From the NCBI GenBank assembly GCA_001784875.1, contig MFSH01000008.1:1555-65554 (forward strand): DNA of 64,000 nucleotides, given 5' to 3'. Shown piece by piece: positions 1 to 64,000 of the stretch. Position numbers and translations under genes: made by a program. The DNA is from Candidatus Moranbacteria bacterium RIFOXYB1_FULL_43_19. Lineage in GTDB: Bacteria > Patescibacteriota > Minisyncoccia > Moranbacterales > UBA11712. How positions within the stretch are numbered: position 1 is the first letter of the stretch; the number at the start of each line of letters is the position of its first letter. A model generated the notes under the pieces. The model saw only the letters and a list, made by a program, of their open reading frames with translations. It made no database searches and had not been told where the DNA came from.

Positions 1-1339
1 AATATTTATACATTTTCGAATCATTTTCCAAAGCTAAGCTTTTTGGATTAAAGCTCGGCTTTTCCCTTCCAAGAGCTAAGCTCTTGGAATTTCTCAAAGC
101 CAAGCTTTCGCTTAGTTTTTTATCGACTAAAACCTCGACAACCCTACCGATGTATTTTTTATTATTTACGAGTGCGGTGCGCGCGAGGATATTTGTGAGT
201 ATTTTTTCGCGGCGAACCTTTTCTTTTTTCGAAATATTATTTTTCAGCTTCCAAGCGGCGGTCTCGGAGCGGGGGGAATATTGGGAAATGTAAGCCATAT
301 CGAATTTCATTTCACGAAATAATTTTACCGTGTTTTCAAATTGTTTTTTGGTTTCGCCGGGGAAGCCGACGATGATGTCGGTGGAAACGGCTGGCGCTGT
401 GTCCGAAAGCTCAACTTTCGGAAATTTCCGAAAGTTGAGCTTTCGGATTTGATAAGTTTGGCGGATTTTTTTGATGAGATTTTTATAATGGGCAACCGTA
501 TAACGCCGGTTCATTTTGCGCAAAATTTCATTGTCTCCCGATTGGGCGGGGAGAGAAATATACTCGCAAATATTTTTTGATTTGACAATTGTTTCAATCA
601 GCTCGTCGGACATATCTTTGGGATGGGAGGTGAGAAAAGATAACCAAAACTTTCCCCGTATAGCGTCTATTGACTCTAACAAATCGGCAAAGCTAATAGT
701 TTTCTTTTTTGTATCTGGTATTTTGTATCTGGTATTTTGTATCTTTGATCTATAGGAATTTACATTTTGTCCAAGTAAAATAATTTCTTTATATCCTTTT
801 TGAACTAAACCTTTGATTTCTTCTAAAATATCTTCCGCCGGCCGCGAATACTCCCGGCCGCGGGCGTAGGGGACGACGCAGTAGGAGCAGAAATTGTTGC
901 AGCCGGTCATGATGGGAACATAGGCGGTATAGTTGTTTGAATATTTCGGTGTTATTTGGAGATAATTATTGCATGGCAAGGTTTTTATATTTAGTATCTG
1001 GTATTTAGTATTTAGTATTTTTTCAATTTCTTTTGGAAAAACTTTAATAGTTACAAATAGATCAGCTTTTTCTTTAAGTCTTCTCTGGACGTCTTTGCGG
1101 TGGGCAAGGCAGCCGGTGAGAATGATAAATTTCTTCGGATATTTTTTTCGGATATTGTTAATTTGCCCGTAAACCCGGTCTTCAGCTGATTGGCGAACTC
1201 CGCAGGTGACAAATATGACAAAGTCCGCCTCTTCTAGCGAGGCGGATTTTTTCAGCTTATATTTTTTTAAGATGGTTTCAATCCTTTCGGCGTCGGAATA
1301 GTTCATTTGACAACCGAAGATTTTGATATAGTAGGTCAT
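1..1339 (-). CDS. MiaB-family radical-SAM methylthiotransferase (MiaB/RimO-like); C-terminus runs off the window start
   Basis: The reverse-strand ORF starts at the ATG at 1339-1337. Its translation reads MTYYIKIFGCQMNYSDAE, VTCGVRQSAE, PIMTGCNNFCSYCVVPYARGREYSRP (the CxxxCxxC radical-SAM site), ILLGQNVNSY, ISLPAQSGDNEILRKMNRRYT, IIVGFPGET and MAYISQYSPRSE. No stop occurs before position 1. It is missing from the ORF track because it is edge-truncated. Confidence 0.75.
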   Translation of the reverse strand, partial: MTYYIKIFGCQMNYSDAERIETILKKYKLKKSASLEEADFVIFVTCGVRQSAEDRVYGQINNIRKKYPKKFIILTGCLAHRKDVQRRLKEKADLFVTIKVFPKEIEKILNTKYQILNIKTLPCNNYLQITPKYSNNYTAYVPIMTGCNNFCSYCVVPYARGREYSRPAEDILEEIKGLVQKGYKEIILLGQNVNSYRSKIQNTRYKIPDTKKKTISFADLLESIDAIRGKFWLSFLTSHPKDMSDELIETIVKSKNICEYISLPAQSGDNEILRKMNRRYTVAHYKNLIKKIRQTYQIRKLNFRKFPKVELSDTAPAVSTDIIVGFPGETKKQFENTVKLFREMKFDMAYISQYSPRSETAAWKLKNNISKKEKVRREKILTNILARTALVNNKKYIGRVVEVLVDKKLSESLALRNSKSLALGREKPSFNPKSLALENDSKMYKY

Positions 1340-13404: not shown

Positions 13405-13487
13405 ATTTGTAATTTGGATATTTTGAATACTCTCATATATGCATATGTGCATATATGAGAGTGTGCGCACTACGATATATCGTAGTG
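13381..13487. repeat. family D 3'-end element (GATGTAATTCGTAATTTGTGAATTTGTAATTTGG plus two perfect hairpins)
   Basis: The element overlaps the last codons and stop of the GT4 gene. The hairpins CTCTCATATATGCA/TGCATATATGAGAG and CACTACGATATATCGTAGTG follow. A paralogous copy lies at the uvrA 3' end. Confidence 0.5.
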
Positions 13488-13603: not shown

Positions 13604-13882
13604 CTACAACATAACCTCAATAATTTCTGTTTCAGGGGGCAGGAATTGAAGCTTACCCGTAGCCAAATCCAGTACTGCGATATTATTGTCCATCAGCTCC
13701 CTGGTTCTTTCTTCGCCCAAGTATAGAGCGAATTCATCGATCCGTTGACAGATCCTAAGTTTATTGCCATCTGGGTGGAATTGGCGAGCGTTAGATAAAA
13801 TTTGATGAACTTCACTCGCGACAATGAACCTGGATTTAGCTGGACAAAATCGGAGTTTTGCAAGGTGCTCTCCTTTTTTCAT
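13604..13882 (-). CDS. hypothetical small protein (92 aa)
   Basis: GGAGG lies 4 nt upstream of the ATG on the minus strand. No family was recognised. Confidence 0.3.
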   Translation of the reverse strand: MKKGEHLAKLRFCPAKSRFIVASEVHQILSNARQFHPDGNKLRICQRIDEFALYLGEERTRELMDNNIAVLDLATGKLQFLPPETEIIEVML

Positions 13883-13914
13883 GGCTCCTCCTAGAGTTCT
13901 ATTATTTTAATCAA

Positions 13915-15093
13915 ATGATTTCGAATCACTCTATCACAACTAATAAACTTCGTCAAGGATTCAAAGTGGCTCTTGTCCACGATTTTCTGAACCAACACGG
14001 CGGGGCGGAGAGGGTGCTTTTGGCGTTGCACGAGATATTTACCGAAGCGCCGATTTATACTTTGCTTTATGACCCTCAAAAAATGCGGGGGAAATTCAAG
14101 GACGCCGACGTTCGGCCGTCGTTCCTTCAAAAATTTCCGAAGTTTTTGAAAAAGCGACATAAGTGGCTTTTGCCTCTTATGCCGACTGCGCCGGAGACTT
14201 TCAACCTTCGGGATTTTGATCTGGTGATTTCTTCTTCGAGCGCTTTCGCCAAGGGAATAATAGTCAAACCAAAAACAATTCACATCTGCTACTGCCACAG
14301 CCCCATGAGATACGCCTGGGATTGGAACGAAAAATATCTCGACGAGCAGGGGCTGGGCACGAAAAGACGGATCCTGGCGCGGCTTCTTCTCAATTATGTC
14401 CGGATGTGGGACAAAGTGGCGGCGGACCGGGTGGATTTTTTCATCGCCAATTCAAAATATACCAGGGAGAGAATAAAAAAATACTATGGCTGCGAAAGTG
14501 CGGTCGTTTATCCGCCAGTGGATATTTCTTCCAAGACTAAATCTGGGAGCGATTTCCAAGACTTAGTCTTGGAAAAACGGGGTTACTTTTTGATTGTTTC
14601 CCGGCTATCGCCATACAAGAAAGTTGAAATCGCCGTGGAAGCCATGAACAAATTGAATCTTCCGCTCTTGGTAATTGGAGAAGGTTCTCCGAAATACGTG
14701 AAATACCTGAAATCAATCGCGGGGCCGAAAACGAAATTTCTGGGATTCCTACCGGATGAAATGATAAAAAAATATTTTTTCGGATGCCGAGCCTTCATTT
14801 TTCCGGGAGAAGATGATTTTGGAATCGCACCGGTTGAAGCCATGTCTTTTGGAAAGCCGGTGATTGCTTTCCGGCGGGGAGGAGCCATGGAAACGGTTGT
14901 CGAAGGAGAAACGGGAGAATTTTTTAACGAGCCAACAATTGAAGTTCTGGCCGACGCGGTGCGCCGGTTCCAGGAAAATGAAAAAAATTATGACCCGGAA
15001 AAAATCCAGCATCAGGCGCAAAAGTTTTCAAAAGAAAAATTTCGGGAGCATTTTTTGGAGGAAATTGAAAAAATAATACAAATACGCGATTGA
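13915..15093 (+). CDS. GT4-family glycosyltransferase
   Basis: The N-terminus has KVALVHDFLNQHGGAERVL and the C-terminus has the EX7E motif (FPGEDDFGIAPVEAMSFGKPVIA). It carries an in-frame CCAAGACTTAGTCTTGG repeat at 14531-14572. The ATG at 13915 is preferred over the TTG at 13858. Confidence 0.8.
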   Translation: MISNHSITTNKLRQGFKVALVHDFLNQHGGAERVLLALHEIFTEAPIYTLLYDPQKMRGKFKDADVRPSFLQKFPKFLKKRHKWLLPLMPTAPETFNLRDFDLVISSSSAFAKGIIVKPKTIHICYCHSPMRYAWDWNEKYLDEQGLGTKRRILARLLLNYVRMWDKVAADRVDFFIANSKYTRERIKKYYGCESAVVYPPVDISSKTKSGSDFQDLVLEKRGYFLIVSRLSPYKKVEIAVEAMNKLNLPLLVIGEGSPKYVKYLKSIAGPKTKFLGFLPDEMIKKYFFGCRAFIFPGEDDFGIAPVEAMSFGKPVIAFRRGGAMETVVEGETGEFFNEPTIEVLADAVRRFQENEKNYDPEKIQHQAQKFSKEKFREHFLEEIEKIIQIRD

Positions 15094-20876: not shown

Positions 20877-20970
20877 TAGCTGGTAGCTAGTATATGGTAT
20901 CTGGTATATTTTTTTTGATATCAATAAAATAAAATACTAAATACTAAATAACAGATACCAAATACAAGTC
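20874..20970. repeat. family B repeat (GGTATCTGGTAT / ATACTAAATACTAAATA...GATACCAAATAC)
   Basis: The same motifs occur in-frame in the MiaB-like gene at 711-750 and 983-1024. Confidence 0.45.
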
Positions 20971-50085: not shown

Positions 50086-50196
50086 TGAAACCCCCGCACC
50101 AAATTTTTGCTGGTTTGTATATATGCCAATTTGGGGTAAGTTTTTGTATTTGCGAAATCAGAAACTTATTCTCGATGATATTTGGTACGGGGCAAG
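50086..50196. repeat. family F hairpin element (CCCCCGCACCAAATTTTTGCTGG ... TTTGGTACGGGGCAAGC)
   Basis: A paralog of the element at 9436-9594. Confidence 0.45.
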
Positions 50197-50295
50197 CCTT
50201 AAATGGGGGATTTTTGTGTTAGGGATATGAATTTAGCGCGGAGAATCCTAAAGCTAAACTTTAGGAGCGCCTAAAGTTTAGCTTTAGGGGAAAAT

Positions 50296-50377
50296 ATGGA
50301 TAAAATAATCATTCGCGGAGCTCGCGAGCACCCCGAAGTATAACGCTTCGCGTTAACTACGGGGCAAGCAATTTGAT
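50296..50377 (+). promoter_or_regulatory. uvrA leader: a 15-codon uORF (MDKIIIRGAREHPEV) mimicking the UvrA N-terminus, overlapping a conserved hairpin element (50331-50370)
   Basis: The uORF ATG at 50296 has a GGGGA SD and its stop lies at 50341-50343. Its first 12 codons are synonymous or conservative variants of the uvrA start at 50378. The hairpin CCCCGAAGTATAACGCTTCGCGTTAACTACGGGGCAAGC has a paralog at 55392-55436. Confidence 0.35.
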
Positions 50378-53254
50378 ATGAATAAGATCATTATAAAAGG
50401 TGCTAGAGAACATAATCTCAAAAACATCGACCTTGAACTTCCGCGGGGGAAGTTTATCGTGTTCACGGGAATCAGCGGGTCGGGAAAAAGTACACTCGCA
50501 TTCGACACCATTTTTGCCGAAGGGCAAAGGCGGTATCTTGAAAGTTTGTCGAGTTATGCCCGGCAGTTTTTGGGACAAATGGAAAAACCGGATGTGGATT
50601 CAATCGAAGGTTTGAGCCCTGCGATTTCGATTGACCAGAAAGCCTCATCGCACAATCCGCGCTCGACAGTCGGGACAGTGACGGAAATCCAAGACTATCT
50701 GCGGCTTCTCTATGCCAAAATCGGACGGCCGCACTGCCCGGTATGTGGAAAAGAAATTTCGAAACTTTCAATTGATGAAATTGTGGATCGGATACTAACA
50801 TTCAATGCTCCGGGAACATTGAATGTTTTAGAAATTCTTTCACCGGTAGTCCGCGAGCGGAAAGGTGATTATGCCACGCTTCTTGCGGAGATGTGGAAAA
50901 GGGGATTCGCGGAGGCCTACGTGGATGGAAAAAAAGTGGTCCTCGAAGATGAAGCGAAAAAAGGAAAAATACTCGCCAGATACAAAAAACACAGCATTGA
51001 TATTTTGATTGATACGGTTGAAATCAGCGATAAAAATATTAGCCGGATATTTGAAAGTGTTGAGTCGGCGCTCAAGTTGTCTAAGGGATTGGTGAAAGTT
51101 ATTCCCGAAACGCATAACACGAAACACGACACGCGAGGGGAAGGGATTATTTTCAACCAAAATATGGCTTGTCCGGATCATGAGGACGTGGTTTTCCCAG
51201 AACTCGAGCCGAGGCTGTTCTCTTTCAATAGTCCGCAGGGGGCTTGTCCTGACTGCGAAGGATTGGGAACGAAAAAAGAAATTGATCCGAGCCTCATCAT
51301 TCCCGACAAAACCCGAACGATTGCCGAAGGGGCGATCATGCCCTGGAGCTACAAGCCGAACAACTACCAAGGCTCGATTTTGCGGGCGGTGACGAACTAT
51401 TATCATATTCCCGACAACGTCCGTTTCCGGGATTTGAGCGAAAAACAGCAAAATATTTTATTGTATGGGGATGAGGAACCAGAGGATATTGAAGTGCGGC
51501 TGAAGACAAAAACCGGAGCAGTTTGGCGCTTTGACGTCACCTGGAACGGAATTTTGGGCTTTATGCGCGACCGCTATTTCAAGACCGAATCGGAAGCGGT
51601 GCGGCAGGACATTGAAAAATATATGTCCCAAAGTCCGTGCAGCGCCTGCAAAGGTTCACGATACAAGCCGGAAGCGCTGTTAATAACAGTTGGAAGTCGT
51701 AATATTGCCCAAGTTTCAAAAATAAGCGTAAATGAAACGCTGAAATTTTTTGAGAGTTTGAAACTGAACGAGCGGGAAAAAATAATCGCGGGAAAAATCT
51801 TGAACGAAGTGAAAAGCCGCCTGAAATTTTTGGATGATGTCGGGTTGGGCTATTTGACCCTGGCCCGTTCAGCCAATACTCTGGCAGGCGGAGAAACACA
51901 GCGAATTCGTCTTGCTTCTCAAATCGGTTCGCAACTGGTCGGAGTCCTATACATTCTCGACGAACCGTCTGTTGGTCTTCATGCACGTGACAATGCGAAG
52001 CTTCTTGATACGCTGCTTAAGTTGAGAGACATTGGCAACACAGTGATTATTATCGAACATGACGAGGAAACTATCCGGAGTGCCGATCATCTGGTTGACA
52101 TCGGGCCGGGTGCGGGAAGGCTTGGCGGGGAGATTGTGGCTGAAGGAAAAATTAAAGATATCGAAACTGCTAAGAATTCTGTCACTGGCAAATACTTACG
52201 GGGAGAACTTGAAATTTCAATCCCAAAGGGTCGCCGGCCAGTGCGAAACAAAAAATGGCTGACCGTGAAAGGAGCGACAGAGCATAATCTCAAAAACGTG
52301 ACGGTTGAATTTCCTTTGAAAACTTTGACGTGCGTGACGGGCGTTTCGGGGTCGGGAAAATCAACACTCGTCGAAGACATTCTTGGAAAAGGACTTTCAG
52401 CAAAAATCATGCGTTCGCTGGAGCGGCCAGGCCGGCACAAGGAAATTCTCGGTACGCAGTATGTGGACAAAGTGATCCATATCAACCAGTCGCCGATCGG
52501 GAGGACGCCGCGATCGAACCCGGCGACATATGTGGGATTTTTCACACTGATTCGAGAACTTTTTGCGATGACAAAAGATGCGAAGCGGCATGGTTATGGT
52601 CCGGGAAGGTTTTCTTTCAACGTGAATGGGGGGCGTTGCGACAATTGCCGCGGGGAAGGATTTTTGAAAGTTGAAATGCAGTTTATGCCGGATGTATTTT
52701 TGCCGTGTGATGTCTGTCGCGGAAAAAGATACAACCGGGAAACGCTCGAAGTGAAATATAAAGGAAAAAATATCGCCGATATTCTCGCGATGACGGTTTC
52801 GGAAGGAAAAGTTTTTTTTGAAAATTATCCACGGATATATGCGCCGCTCAAAGTCCTCGAGGAGGTCGGGCTGGGATACATCAATCTTGGCCAGGCGGCG
52901 ACAACGCTCTCGGGCGGGGAAGCGCAGAGAATCAAACTGGCCTCGGAACTTTCGCGGCGGATGACCGGAAATACATTATACATTCTTGATGAGCCGACAA
53001 CAGGACTGCATTTCGACGACGTGAAAAAATTATTGAACGTTCTCCATCGCTTGGTGGAGGCGGGAAATACTGTTATTGTGGTTGAGCACAATATGGATGT
53101 TATCAAAACGGCCGATTGGATCATTGACCTTGGACCGGAAGGCGGGGACAATGGCGGACGCGTGGTGGTCACCGGCCCGCCGGAAGAAGTGGTGAAGTAT
53201 CATCAAGAAAGTTATACCGCAAAATTTCTTCGCGACGTAATTCGTAAATCGTAA
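50378..53254 (+). CDS. uvrA: excinuclease ABC subunit A
   Basis: Two ABC ATPase modules (GISGSGKSTL, GVSGSGKSTL), zinc fingers and LSGGE signatures are present. An in-frame ACACG repeat lies at 51107-51137. The last codons lie inside a family D repeat. Confidence 0.92.
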   Translation: MNKIIIKGAREHNLKNIDLELPRGKFIVFTGISGSGKSTLAFDTIFAEGQRRYLESLSSYARQFLGQMEKPDVDSIEGLSPAISIDQKASSHNPRSTVGTVTEIQDYLRLLYAKIGRPHCPVCGKEISKLSIDEIVDRILTFNAPGTLNVLEILSPVVRERKGDYATLLAEMWKRGFAEAYVDGKKVVLEDEAKKGKILARYKKHSIDILIDTVEISDKNISRIFESVESALKLSKGLVKVIPETHNTKHDTRGEGIIFNQNMACPDHEDVVFPELEPRLFSFNSPQGACPDCEGLGTKKEIDPSLIIPDKTRTIAEGAIMPWSYKPNNYQGSILRAVTNYYHIPDNVRFRDLSEKQQNILLYGDEEPEDIEVRLKTKTGAVWRFDVTWNGILGFMRDRYFKTESEAVRQDIEKYMSQSPCSACKGSRYKPEALLITVGSRNIAQVSKISVNETLKFFESLKLNEREKIIAGKILNEVKSRLKFLDDVGLGYLTLARSANTLAGGETQRIRLASQIGSQLVGVLYILDEPSVGLHARDNAKLLDTLLKLRDIGNTVIIIEHDEETIRSADHLVDIGPGAGRLGGEIVAEGKIKDIETAKNSVTGKYLRGELEISIPKGRRPVRNKKWLTVKGATEHNLKNVTVEFPLKTLTCVTGVSGSGKSTLVEDILGKGLSAKIMRSLERPGRHKEILGTQYVDKVIHINQSPIGRTPRSNPATYVGFFTLIRELFAMTKDAKRHGYGPGRFSFNVNGGRCDNCRGEGFLKVEMQFMPDVFLPCDVCRGKRYNRETLEVKYKGKNIADILAMTVSEGKVFFENYPRIYAPLKVLEEVGLGYINLGQAATTLSGGEAQRIKLASELSRRMTGNTLYILDEPTTGLHFDDVKKLLNVLHRLVEAGNTVIVVEHNMDVIKTADWIIDLGPEGGDNGGRVVVTGPPEEVVKYHQESYTAKFLRDVIRKS

Positions 53255-53325
53255 TTTGTAATTGGGATAATTTTCACTACAACTAGTTGTAGTGAGTTTT
53301 ACTACTATATATAGTAGTAAAATAA
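53231..53325. repeat. family D 3'-end element (GACGTAATTCGTAAATCGTAATTTGTAATTGGG plus two perfect hairpins)
   Basis: It supplies ...DVIRKS-stop to uvrA. The hairpins CACTACAACTAGTTGTAGTG and TTTACTACTATATATAGTAGTAAA follow. Confidence 0.5.
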
Positions 53326-54043: not shown

Positions 54044-55342
54044 ATGTCAATGCAAACCATAAAATCTAAAATCTCCAATCTCCCCAAATCTCCCGGTGTA
54101 TACGAATTTCGCGATAAGCAAGGGAAAATTCTTTATATTGGGAAAGCAACGAGTCTTAAGAGCAGGGTGGGGAGCTATTTCGGAAATTTTTCCAAGACTA
54201 AGTCTTGGAAAACCACAAAACTTAGTCTTGAGAGAGGGCCACGGATTGTTGAAATGGTCTCGCGAGCTACAGAAGTAAAAATCCATGAAACCGATTCGGT
54301 TCTCGAAGCCTTGATTTTGGAATCGAATCTCATCAAAAAGTACCAGCCGAAATATAATGTGATGGCGAAAGATGACAAGAGTTTTGGCTATTTTGTGATC
54401 ACCAAAGAAAAATTTCCGCGAGTGGTGATTTTCTGGAAAACGGAGCTGGGGAAAGTGCCGGCAAAAAAAATATACGGGCCGTATCTATCAAAATATCAAA
54501 TGAATATTGCTCTGAAACTGATTCGCCGAATTTTTCCGTTTCATTCCAACAAGCAGCAAACCGAAAAAGGGTGCCTTGATTTCCAAATCGGCCGGTGTCC
54601 CGGACCGTACGTGGGAGCTATTACGAAAAAAGATTATCTCAAAAATATCCGCAATATCGAGATGATACTCCGAGGCGAAAAAAAGCGGCTCGTCAGCTCG
54701 CTTAAAAAAGAAATGAAAAATTGCGCGAAGAACCACGAATTCGAAAAGGCCGCCGAAGCCCGCAACCGAATTTTCGCGCTCGAACATATCAGGGATGTTG
54801 CATTGATAAACCAAGACTTAGTCTTGGAAAATTCCAAGACTAAGTCTTGGGGAAGGATCGAGGCCTATGATATTTCCAATATCGGCGGTGATTATGCGGT
54901 TGGTTCGATGGTCGTTTTCACGAACAGCAAAGCGGATAAAAACGAATATCGTAAATTCAAAATCAAAACAGTCATTGGTGTTGACGATGTTGGTATGATG
55001 AAAGAAGTTTTAGCTCGGCGTTTTAGGAATAATTGGCCGAAACCGGACCTGATTCTCCTCGACGGGGGGAAGGGCCATCTCAATATGGCCCAGAAAATAA
55101 TGGAGGAATTGAAACTCGAAATCCCGATCATTGCTGCTGCCAAAGGGCCGACACGAAAAAAAATCGATATCTACCAGTCAAAATACCTCTTGACATATCT
55201 TGGTCGAAATGAGGAAATAAGGGAGAGGTATAACAGTATATTGAGTGATGCGAAGCTAATCGAGAGAATTCGCAACGAAGCCCATCGCTTTGCGATCAGT
55301 TATCACAAGAAATTACGACAGAAAAATTGGAAAAGTAGATAA
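54044..55342 (+). CDS. uvrC: excinuclease ABC subunit C, short form lacking the C-terminal (HhH)2 domain
   Basis: The GIY-YIG module (GVYEF...ILYIGKA), a UVR domain (EFEKAAEARNRIFALEHI) and an RNase-H-like endonuclease domain are present. Two in-frame CCAAGACTAAGTCTTGG insertions lie at 54192-54232 and 54811-54851. Confidence 0.8.
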   Translation: MSMQTIKSKISNLPKSPGVYEFRDKQGKILYIGKATSLKSRVGSYFGNFSKTKSWKTTKLSLERGPRIVEMVSRATEVKIHETDSVLEALILESNLIKKYQPKYNVMAKDDKSFGYFVITKEKFPRVVIFWKTELGKVPAKKIYGPYLSKYQMNIALKLIRRIFPFHSNKQQTEKGCLDFQIGRCPGPYVGAITKKDYLKNIRNIEMILRGEKKRLVSSLKKEMKNCAKNHEFEKAAEARNRIFALEHIRDVALINQDLVLENSKTKSWGRIEAYDISNIGGDYAVGSMVVFTNSKADKNEYRKFKIKTVIGVDDVGMMKEVLARRFRNNWPKPDLILLDGGKGHLNMAQKIMEELKLEIPIIAAAKGPTRKKIDIYQSKYLLTYLGRNEEIRERYNSILSDAKLIERIRNEAHRFAISYHKKLRQKNWKSR

Positions 55343-63243: not shown

Positions 63244-64000
63244 TTACTCCTTCACAATCTTGCCACCGAAAATGTCGACGGCTTCCTGCAGAAGGCTTTT
63301 TTTCTCTTTGAAATCGGGATATTGGGCGGAAAAATCTTTTTCAGTGACGGCTTTCAACCGCAAATTAACGCCCGTTATCTTATCAATCGCTTTCTCTATT
63401 GTCAACCGGTTCTGGGTGTCGGAAATTTTGTCGTTATAAAAAGAGTATTTCGTTTTGAGAATGAGATATTTTCCGTCAATCAGAGCCGGCTGGGACATTT
63501 TGAGGACTGAGGAAAGGGAATGGTTGTAGCTTTTGAGAGACTCGATAATTTCCGTCCATTGGGAAACAATGAGATTGAAATCCTCGCTTGAATTTCCAGG
63601 ACTTTTATTTTCAGATTTCGCAGCCGTTTCTTTCACCTCTTGCTTTCCTGAAATATCCGTTTTTTTCTTTGCCGAAGGTTCAACCTTCGGAAGCGCGGTT
63701 TGCGCAATTTCTCTTTTAGGGGTCGGATCTCTAAATTCAGCAGGTTTGCTGCGGATTGTTTTGGCGAGGCTTACTTCCAAAAATAATTGGGGAATGGGGC
63801 TGTTGCGAAATTTTTCGATATTTTCCTGAAGAATATTGATCAGATCCAAAATCTCGGCAAGTTCTATGTTATTGATTTGATCATTTATTTGTTCGAGCCT
63901 TTCTTTTGTGAGTTCATATGACAATTTTTTCCCAAGTTCCGGGTTTATTTTGAGAACGAGCATTTGGCGAAGATAATTGAGCAAAGATTTTCCAAAATTT
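63244..64000 (-). CDS. dnaX: DNA polymerase III subunit gamma/tau, C-terminal portion; N-terminus lies beyond the window
   Basis: The frame stays open to the window edge. The C-terminus (...LQEAVDIFGGKIVKE) resembles the DnaX C-terminal domain and the middle section is coiled and charged. No AAA+ region is visible in the window. Confidence 0.55.
   Translation of the reverse strand, partial: NFGKSLLNYLRQMLVLKINPELGKKLSYELTKERLEQINDQINNIELAEILDLINILQENIEKFRNSPIPQLFLEVSLAKTIRSKPAEFRDPTPKREIAQTALPKVEPSAKKKTDISGKQEVKETAAKSENKSPGNSSEDFNLIVSQWTEIIESLKSYNHSLSSVLKMSQPALIDGKYLILKTKYSFYNDKISDTQNRLTIEKAIDKITGVNLRLKAVTEKDFSAQYPDFKEKKSLLQEAVDIFGGKIVKE

Follow-up and report, generated by a model that had tools for sequence, protein, structure and literature searches.

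Palindromic repeats in frame in housekeeping genes of a Moranbacteria genome, and their probable kinship with REP/RAYT systems

A stretch of 64,000 nucleotides (nt) from the metagenome-assembled genome (MAG) Candidatus Moranbacteria bacterium RIFOXYB1_FULL_43_19 (contig MFSH01000008.1, positions 1,555 to 65,554) was found to contain several families of short palindromes, most of which lie in frame within genes, at loops and linkers of the encoded proteins. We refer to this whole stretch as the window, and coordinates are those of the window unless another locus is named. Orthologous sites without the palindrome were observed. In the related DNA that we covered (about 0.3 Mb), each complete transposase locus is paired one-to-one with its own hairpin family, and three of these families are families of the window. 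We conclude that the palindromes are probably hairpins of the repetitive extragenic palindromic (REP) type, present in many copies and recognised as single-stranded DNA (ssDNA) by a cognate Y1 (HUH) enzyme, the REP-associated tyrosine transposase (RAYT, or TnpA-REP). Homology suggests that these transposases would be catalytically active and would mobilise their hairpins.

Hairpin families in the window

We defined family A by its core 17-mer, CCAAGACTWAGTCTTGG. A pattern search of the window recovered four perfect copies (14556-14572, 54192-54208, 54811-54827, and 54834-54850) and two decayed copies, at 14531-14547 with 2 mismatches and at 54215-54231 with 3. The second of these decayed units may be partly native sequence. 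All six units are in frame, and they are distributed over a GT4 glycosyltransferase gene and two sites in uvrC. In total, 11 strand-matches were observed in the window, compared with 0.07 expected from shuffles. An earlier note, made from the sequence alone, had reported the 17-mer at these sites; two of its intervals, 54216-54232 and 54835-54851, were one base off (correctly 54215-54231 and 54834-54850). The peptides it had read from the inserts, NFSKTKSWKTTKLSLERG and INQDLVLENSKTKSWGRIE in UvrC and SSKTKSGSDFQDLVLEKRG in GT4, were correct, and Pfam matches agreed with its naming of the three host genes as GT4, uvrC, and MiaB-like (Table 1).

Table 1 Host genes and palindromic units in the window.
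Feature	Position	Strand	Remarks
MiaB/RimO-like methylthiotransferase gene	2..1339	-	Host gene; UPF0004 and Radical_SAM; extends past the window start
Cluster of related units, MiaB-like C-terminal tail	28..110		Perfect unit 67-89, TTCCAAGAGCTAAGCTCTTGGAA; decayed units 28-46 and 93-110; KSLAL three times
Family B perfect 46-nt inverted doublet	402..447		TCCGAAAGCTCAACTTTCGGA twice; in frame in the MiaB-like gene as IRKLNFRKFPKVELSD
GT4 glycosyltransferase gene	13858..15093	+	Host gene; longest open reading frame; start at about 13966 or 13915 in public gene calls
Decayed family A unit CCAAGACTAAATCTGGG	14531..14547		First doublet arm, GT4 interdomain linker; reads SKTKSG
Perfect family A unit with T/A feet TTTCCAAGACTTAGTCTTGGAAA	14553..14575		Second GT4 arm; reads FQDLVLEK
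Family C unit TTCCTAAGATCGGATCTTAGGAA	30720..30742		Intergenic; fills the gap from the Mur-ligase gene stop to the ftsQ start
Family B-like inverted doublet TCCTAAAGCTAAACTTTAGGA / CCTAAAGTTTAGCTTTAGG	50246..50288		Intergenic, upstream of uvrA
Possible imperfect unit TTCAATGCTCCGGGAACATTGAA	50801..50823		Variable uvrA segment (FNAPGTLN); weak
uvrC	54044..55342	+	Host gene; 432 amino acids; GIY-YIG, UVR, and UvrC RNaseH domains (Pfam)
Perfect family A unit TTTTCCAAGACTAAGTCTTGGAAAA	54188..54212		uvrC site 1, GIY-YIG domain loop; reads FSKTKSWK
Decayed partner unit ACAAAACTTAGTCTTGA	54215..54231		uvrC site 1; reads TKLSLE
Perfect family A inverted doublet	54811..54850		uvrC site 2, UVR/RNaseH endonuclease linker; reads QDLVLENSKTKSW
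Single unit CCGAAGGTTCAACCTTCGG	63672..63690		In frame, dnaX linker (LPKVEPSA)

Alignment of 23 family A copies from the window and related genomes gave the full conserved unit as T3-4CCAAGACTWAGTCTTGGA3-4, with a length of 23-25 nt. Each family A site in the window consists of two such units in opposite orientation, with the central A/T flipped and 6-8 variable bases between them. The whole site forms a palindrome of 40-49 nt, and the sites that do not have two perfect units are doublets with one decayed arm. Inverted orientation was observed in all doublets of the window (6/6), which fold as hairpins of 18-21 bp with z-scores of -9 to -11. Single units reach about -8 to -10 kcal/mol as ssDNA, while perfect doublets reach -20 to -26 kcal/mol as DNA (z-scores to -11); the doublet at uvrC site 2, with 19-bp arms, gave -19.7 kcal/mol as an ssDNA hairpin. 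RNA folding, which the earlier note had proposed to predict, gave -31 to -37 kcal/mol for perfect doublets. Folding is weaker in the two doublets that have a decayed arm, at -9.9 and -13.3 kcal/mol as DNA and -21.4 and -23.4 kcal/mol as RNA. Rfam and tRNA scans of the window returned two tRNAs only, with no known RNA family at the repeats.

In related genomes, family A was found in rsmI, cysS, a uppP-like gene, an ELP3-like gene, and GT4, with all three reading frames in use. Intergenic copies were also found at loci L118 and L119 and 5' of a transposase gene in L114. The statement of the earlier note that the palindrome always lies inside an open reading frame (ORF) is therefore true within the window, but not of these relatives. 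A metagenome scan with the extended pattern yielded 15 loci carrying family A, and one contig of the same population carries 5 units besides the 6 in the window. A scan of a genome collection with the bare 17-mer was less specific: the matches listed were mostly to the S17 gene of unrelated bacteria, and four Moranbacteria loci among them were useful. In L122, L124, and L128, the three loci whose context was read, exactly TCCAAGACTAAGTCTTGG codes for the conserved motif PLSKTKSW of ribosomal protein S17, and the same coding probably explains the many 17-mer matches in Pseudomonas (among L001-L113). The resemblance is coincidental, has nothing to do with the element, and yields false positives.

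Identical 23-25-mers of family A were found at more than 10 unrelated loci and around the transposase gene of the same population, against a chance expectation of 0.07. These identities strongly disfavour an origin of each palindrome at its own site, in which template switching or the correction of quasi-palindromes would act in unconstrained linkers and nothing would be copied between loci, although orthologous sites of equal length do carry related yet different palindromes (dnaX, rsmI) and no target-site duplications were seen. We regard it as very improbable.

An unbiased survey of hairpins found perfect stems of at least 9 bp at 18 loci in the window, compared with 2.9 +/- 1.7 in dinucleotide shuffles. 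At least five families of like geometry and different sequence could be distinguished, which share the shape TTxxAAG...CTTxxAA. Of the 15 recognised units, 12 are in frame within genes (MiaB-like, GT4, uvrC at two sites, and dnaX), rather than extragenic as in the REP/RAYT systems of other bacteria compared below. Of the remaining three, all intergenic, two lie upstream of uvrA and one separates the Mur-ligase gene from ftsQ. Similarly, 84 of 114 perfect hairpins in 16 related loci lie within ORFs of at least 100 amino acids. The related copies that the earlier note had placed in the 3' region of the MiaB-like gene are there, as the unit CCAAGAGCTAAGCTCTTGG at 69-87 with decayed neighbours on both sides.

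The inserts were found to occupy positions between or within loops of folded domains. In GT4, the insert falls between the Pfam domains Glyco_transf_4 (amino acids 48-224) and Glycos_transf_1 (amino acids 237-383), exactly where the two Rossmann domains meet. The AlphaFold model of the window UvrC has segments with a pLDDT below 50 at 51-63 and 252-266, which coincide with the two inserts and are flanked by ordered elements. We also observed that UvrC of this lineage has only about 420-430 amino acids and ends after the RNaseH-like endonuclease domain; no C-terminal helix-hairpin-helix domain was detected in the window UvrC or its orthologues.

Y1 transposases paired with the hairpins

Two of the related loci, L114 and L123, carry three family A units around a single gene of 222-235 amino acids. 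The product of the L114 gene, P0121 (235 amino acids, L114:1701-2408), matched Pfam Y1_Tnp with 25.6 bits against a gathering score of 23, and its motifs H90-x-H92 and Y149-xxx-N153 were invariant across 35 homologues. Its AlphaFold model (pLDDT 85.7) was compared with known structures by Foldseek. The best fold match in the PDB was 4ER8, a complex of a REP hairpin with the REP-associated tyrosine transposase of E. coli (E 5e-6, target-normalised TM-score 0.61), followed by the TnpA proteins of IS608, ISDra2, and IS200. P0121 belongs to a clade of proteins of ~220 amino acids with an extra C-terminal helical region, comprising 3,528 clusters at 50% identity (E<=1e-10). Some members carry the JGI pipeline label 'REP element-mobilizing transposase RayT'. 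Several paralogues are found per genome; they are 43-60% identical, and each has other hairpins.

The hairpins were found at fixed positions around these genes. Three family A hairpins accompany the P0121 gene: one precedes the start codon by 16 nt, one lies inside the ORF, where it reads FPRLSLGK, and one lies at the 3' end; the candidate cognate ssDNA hairpin of the enzyme is TTTTCCAAGACTWAGTCTTGGAAAA. In all complete paralogue loci (9/9), the paralogue's own palindrome is present at both the 5' and the 3' flank. The 5' copy lies 4-16 nt before the ATG in most loci and about 20 nt before it in L119 and L135; the 3' copy lies 0-11 nt past the stop codon or overlaps it. A perfect internal copy, at about residues 66-73, is present in six of the nine loci. 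Its position is ungapped across the family, F-x-R-x-x-L-x-K being encoded as TTT NNA AGN ... CTT NNN AAA, and this reading accounts for the shape common to all families. The presence of several families of like shape in the window would be explained by the other paralogues, which have other hairpin families at these three places. A master copy or a site of autoregulation are possible roles of the internal hairpin. In L114 it lies at 1896-1924 of that locus, in a loop of the model.

Three families of the window are identical to hairpins of the paralogues. Family A is that of L114 and L123, the family B unit at 402-447 is the one that flanks the paralogue in L119, and the family C unit is the internal hairpin of paralogue P0162 (L134). 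P0121 is annotated as A2359_02630 of RIFOXYB1_FULL_43_19, the MAG whose UvrC (A2359_03150) is identical to that of the window over 430 of 430 residues. P0121 is also found in another MAG with an identical UvrC, and the UvrC of Candidatus Moranbacteria bacterium RIFOXYA1_FULL_44_7 is 100% identical to that of the window.

We considered whether the transposase genes are ordinary autonomous insertion sequences (IS) of the IS200/IS605 type, with the solitary palindromes as left-over ends or as derivatives resembling palindrome-associated transposable elements (PATEs) or miniature transposable elements with inverted repeats (MITEs). The Pfam match is to the IS200 family, the TnpA proteins of IS608 and ISDra2 are strong structural matches, hairpins stand directly at both gene ends, and there are several paralogues per genome. 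With IS200/IS605 and PATEs the system shares the Y1 HUH fold and, as predicted from that fold, an ssDNA chemistry that recognises hairpins. Whole IS200/IS605 elements are multicopy, and their left and right ends are distinct. Here, in contrast, the hairpin alone is multicopy, its 5' and 3' copies do not differ in sequence, unlike the ends of IS608, and the gene occupies one conserved locus, with no set of near-identical whole copies: the paralogues differ from each other as well as in their hairpins. The exact P0121 protein was found on 20 contigs, and 10 of 10 places listed show a single genomic context in which two giant ORFs enclose the gene. L114 and L123 are syntenic over the gene and its neighbour, at about 78% nucleotide identity but with all three hairpins perfect, and a positional orthologue, P0149, occupies the same position as P0121. 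The gene thus appears to be resident rather than hopping, RAYT-like and not IS-like, and the top structural match is a RAYT. Nor does the repeat have the structure of a MITE, being a simple hairpin with no terminal inverted repeats around a non-palindromic core and no target-site duplication seen. We consider ordinary IS elements an unlikely explanation.

The giant ORFs around P0121 and P0149 (L114, L132, L137-L146) have roughly 2,000-2,800 amino acids, and the upstream one carries a Peptidase_S74 (endosialidase chaperone) domain. Assemblies often break near this locus.

Compared with the REP/RAYT systems of Enterobacteria, Pseudomonas, and Stenotrophomonas, the hairpins and transposases described here are alike in their multicopy short palindromes, in the inverted doublets that form long hairpins (REPINs), in the single-locus Y1 HUH gene flanked by its own repeat, in the several co-varying pairs of paralogue and repeat per genome, and in the fold. 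Both REP dimers and RAYT genes with REPs on either side ('REPtrons') are established features (PMC3733652, PMC5581495), and perfect-palindrome REPs that co-evolve with their TnpA-REP have been described (PMC8266576). A GTAG (or CGTC) tetranucleotide, or guide, at the foot of the hairpin is typical (PMC3733652, PMC6006769), whereas the feet are AT-rich and untagged here. Further differences are the remote clade of ~220 amino acids, below the NCBIfam RAYT cut-off and with its extra helical region, the predominance of units inside ORFs, the fixed hairpin copy inside the transposase ORF, and the lineage, Patescibacteria or Candidate Phyla Radiation (CPR). Most structural features of REP/RAYT are therefore present, and three are absent: the match to the curated sequence model, the GTAG/CGTC tag, and the extragenic location. 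As a separate observation, the family of L116 has CTAC...GTAG within its stem.

Other phyla already provide examples of REPs within genes. Notably in uvrA, uvrB, and further genes of repair and replication, Di Nocera et al. 2013 described REP singlets and dimers that encode about 20-30 amino acids, and they classed the short Rickettsia palindromic elements RPE-4 and RPE-6 with REPs (PMC3733652), so that the comparison with Rickettsia drawn by the earlier note was apt. The intragenic REPs of Opitutus terrae, Thauera, and Thioalkalivibrio, together with RPE-4/-6, resemble the units found here in being in-frame singlets or dimers that encode about 8-30 amino acids, often occur twice per gene, and favour uvrA, uvrB or excinuclease, and replication genes, as here uvrA, uvrB, uvrC, and dnaX (PMC3733652). 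There, intragenic copies make up the minority within families tagged with GTAG or CGTC; here the intragenic form is dominant and the families are untagged. New here is the mostly protein-embedded form in a CPR lineage. Among the results listed by searches of open-access text, we found no report of RAYT/REPIN or of in-frame palindromic repeats in CPR/Patescibacteria, in agreement with the earlier note, and a broad survey of Y1 enzymes makes no mention of these lineages (PMC6006769).

Another comparison is with the elements of the RPE-1 type, which Ogata et al. in 2000 reportedly found in frame in housekeeping genes of Rickettsia, about 100-150 bp long and at surface-exposed positions. We know of no dedicated transposase for RPE-1. 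The likeness lies in palindromic selfish DNA that is tolerated in frame in functional genes; the Moranbacteria elements are set apart by their size, with units of 23-25 nt and doublets of 40-49 nt, and by the host phylum.

Orthologous sites and a possible route of spread

We compared the insert positions with those of orthologous genes. Among 46 UvrC sequences with 55-80% identity, site 1 was mostly the short conserved LKNAHLDRPN, including in three syntenic genomes, and the window has a net gain of 33 nt relative to these empty sites. Site 2 was found to be hypervariable in sequence and length, and the GT4 linker (VYPPV...YFLIVSRLS) ranged from 14 to 47 residues among 50 orthologues. The comparison with orthologues, the UvrC model, and the GT4 domain positions therefore support true in-frame inserts at tolerant positions, as the earlier note had supposed when it likened the palindromes to elements that colonise coding sequence and proposed to show that the extra residues fall in surface loops: the UvrC inserts fall in loops of low pLDDT and the GT4 insert between two domains.

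Nearly all orthologues of a given linker carry some palindrome. The orthologues L030 and L120 have a perfect family A doublet at the same GT4 site, and others carry different translated palindromes at the same sites (EGSTFGNRKVEPS, SESSTFGIPNVELSD, SQHSMLGYRPNIECW, and SLSLTLGNVPKVKLKE), with confirmation at the DNA level for L129 and L130. In uvrB, L130 has a doublet where L129 and L131 are empty. In rsmI, L117 and L121 differ as singlet and doublet of equal length. The dnaX site holds decayed copies of equal length in L130 and L131, one old insert in decay, with compensating stem changes among orthologues. At the GT4 site of L136, family A stems enclose another loop, which has changed complementarily in both arms. 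This suggested that the doublet is maintained as a palindrome.

Such maintenance could mean that a host function is the main reason why the hairpins persist, as protein-binding sites, DNA-uptake signals, or structures in mRNA or ssDNA that pause translation between domains, with the link to the transposase secondary. CPR bacteria depend on DNA uptake. Besides the complementary change in L136 and the compensating stems of dnaX, the hairpins remain perfect while their flanks diverge to 78%, they lie at domain boundaries, and they would form very stable mRNA hairpins (-31 to -37 kcal/mol). On the other hand, each genome has many hairpin sequences and no single signal, and family A occurs in the window at a density of only ~0.1 per kb. 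Partner copies decay freely, many orthologues have no hairpin at uvrC site 1, and the specific pairing with transposase paralogues would be left unexplained. We consider a mainly host-serving role improbable, still more so than ordinary IS elements. The particular readings as DNA-uptake signals or operators were rejected on the number of families and the pairing with transposases.

The preferred explanation, REP-type hairpins with cognate RAYT-like enzymes, suggests the following route. The enzyme would nick and rejoin its hairpin on ssDNA at replication forks and so seed new copies. New copies would often settle beside an older one, inverted relative to it, and so produce REPIN-like doublets. 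In a genome that is almost all coding, most insertions would hit genes, and selection would retain only those that add whole codons to a flexible loop or an interdomain linker and are not read in the one frame of each orientation that contains a stop. Copies would later decay or be overwritten at the same permissive sites.

Several results weigh against this explanation. The 23-copy alignment revealed nothing conserved and no guide motif outside the family A palindrome, and the GTAG/CGTC tag was absent from it, with only the feet of T-runs and A-runs kept. The spacers are not alike between doublets. P0121 did not reach the NCBIfam RAYT equivalog NF047646 (17.9 bits against a cut-off of 80), and PDB sequence searches with the transposase and with the family profile gave no match; the kinship with RAYT is therefore structural only, and the clade is remote. 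No transposase homologue was found in the 64-kb window or in three syntenic 21-kb loci, and it is the MAG bin and the identical UvrC that would assign the window and the P0121 gene to one organism. At orthologous pairs we saw no target-site duplication and no clean junction between filled and empty sites, because the flanks are too diverged. A look-up of protein clusters found no strain variants that lack the insert, and recent mobility is thus a prediction. Finally, a given site can hold one family in one orthologue and another family in the next, which simple random insertion fails to explain. A filter for permissive sites, insertion beside existing hairpins, or conversion between copies are possible causes of this pattern.

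A broader proposal, which we advance tentatively and hold to be rather doubtful as yet, is that Patescibacteria possess a very large and diversified RAYT-like clade in which each ORF contains a master hairpin, besides the copies at both gene ends, and the hairpins continually rewrite loops and linkers of essential proteins. If this were true, REPs would be the origin of much linker sequence in the housekeeping proteins of CPR bacteria, this sequence would turn over faster than the genes themselves, and the whole would be a protein-embedded REPIN-RAYT system, pushed into coding DNA by scarce intergenic space.

REP/RAYT kinship of the window families would by itself extend this biology to the CPR, and would show the fate of selfish or domesticated DNA where intergenic space is almost nil, namely residence inside proteins. 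It would also explain hypervariable peptides of CPR orthologues (SKTKSW, QDLVLE, FPRLSLGK, VELSD/ESSTFG, PNIECW), segments of a kind that disturb alignments, domain models, and phylogenies. Short pairs of enzyme and hairpin, such as the 235-residue protein with its 25-nt hairpin, appear suited to the study of how Y1 enzymes recognise perfect palindromes, and the hairpins are candidate strain markers in CPR metagenomes.

Other repeats near the hairpins

A non-palindromic filler repeat was also observed in the window. It consists of tandem heptamers of the form (R)ATAC(Y)A(R), for example AATACTAAATACCAGATAC, with 13 matches compared with 0.15 expected. Arrays lie at 711-743, 987-1019, and 20883-20965; two are in frame in the MiaB-like gene (IQNTRYKIPDTK and LNTKYQILNIK), and arrays form an inverted pair in the intergenic gap 20877-20970. 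The same repeat is found at uvrC sites 2 and 3 of many orthologues (IPDTKYQIPNT), including site 2 of L131.

The 5' region of uvrA (50128-50412) is a mosaic in which a conserved leader motif is present twice. A pseudo-start of 12 codons, MDKIIIRGAREH (50296-50331), is identical at 33 of 36 positions to the real uvrA start of L129, and at only 23 of 36 to the functional uvrA start of the window (50378). The pseudo-start, the REP-like doublet, and the second of the two leaders all lie within a stretch of 172 nt bracketed by a direct repeat, TACGGGGCAAGC. The mosaic has the look of a partially duplicated region or of a DNA patch from a foreign lineage.

Perfect AT-rich palindromes were found in intergenic regions at 13429-13462, 13468-13487, 53274-53295, and 53297-53322 (ACTCTCATATATGCATATGTGCATATATGAGAGT, CACTACGATATATCGTAGTG, TCACTACAACTAGTTGTAGTGA, and TTTTACTACTATATATAGTAGTAAAA, respectively). 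They do not belong to the REP-like families and probably serve as operators or promoters. In another Moranbacteria genome, the corresponding region beside GT4 (L120, 3129-3179 of that locus) has the pair that the window has upstream of GT4, with the 20-mer identical and the longer palindrome as a similar variant.

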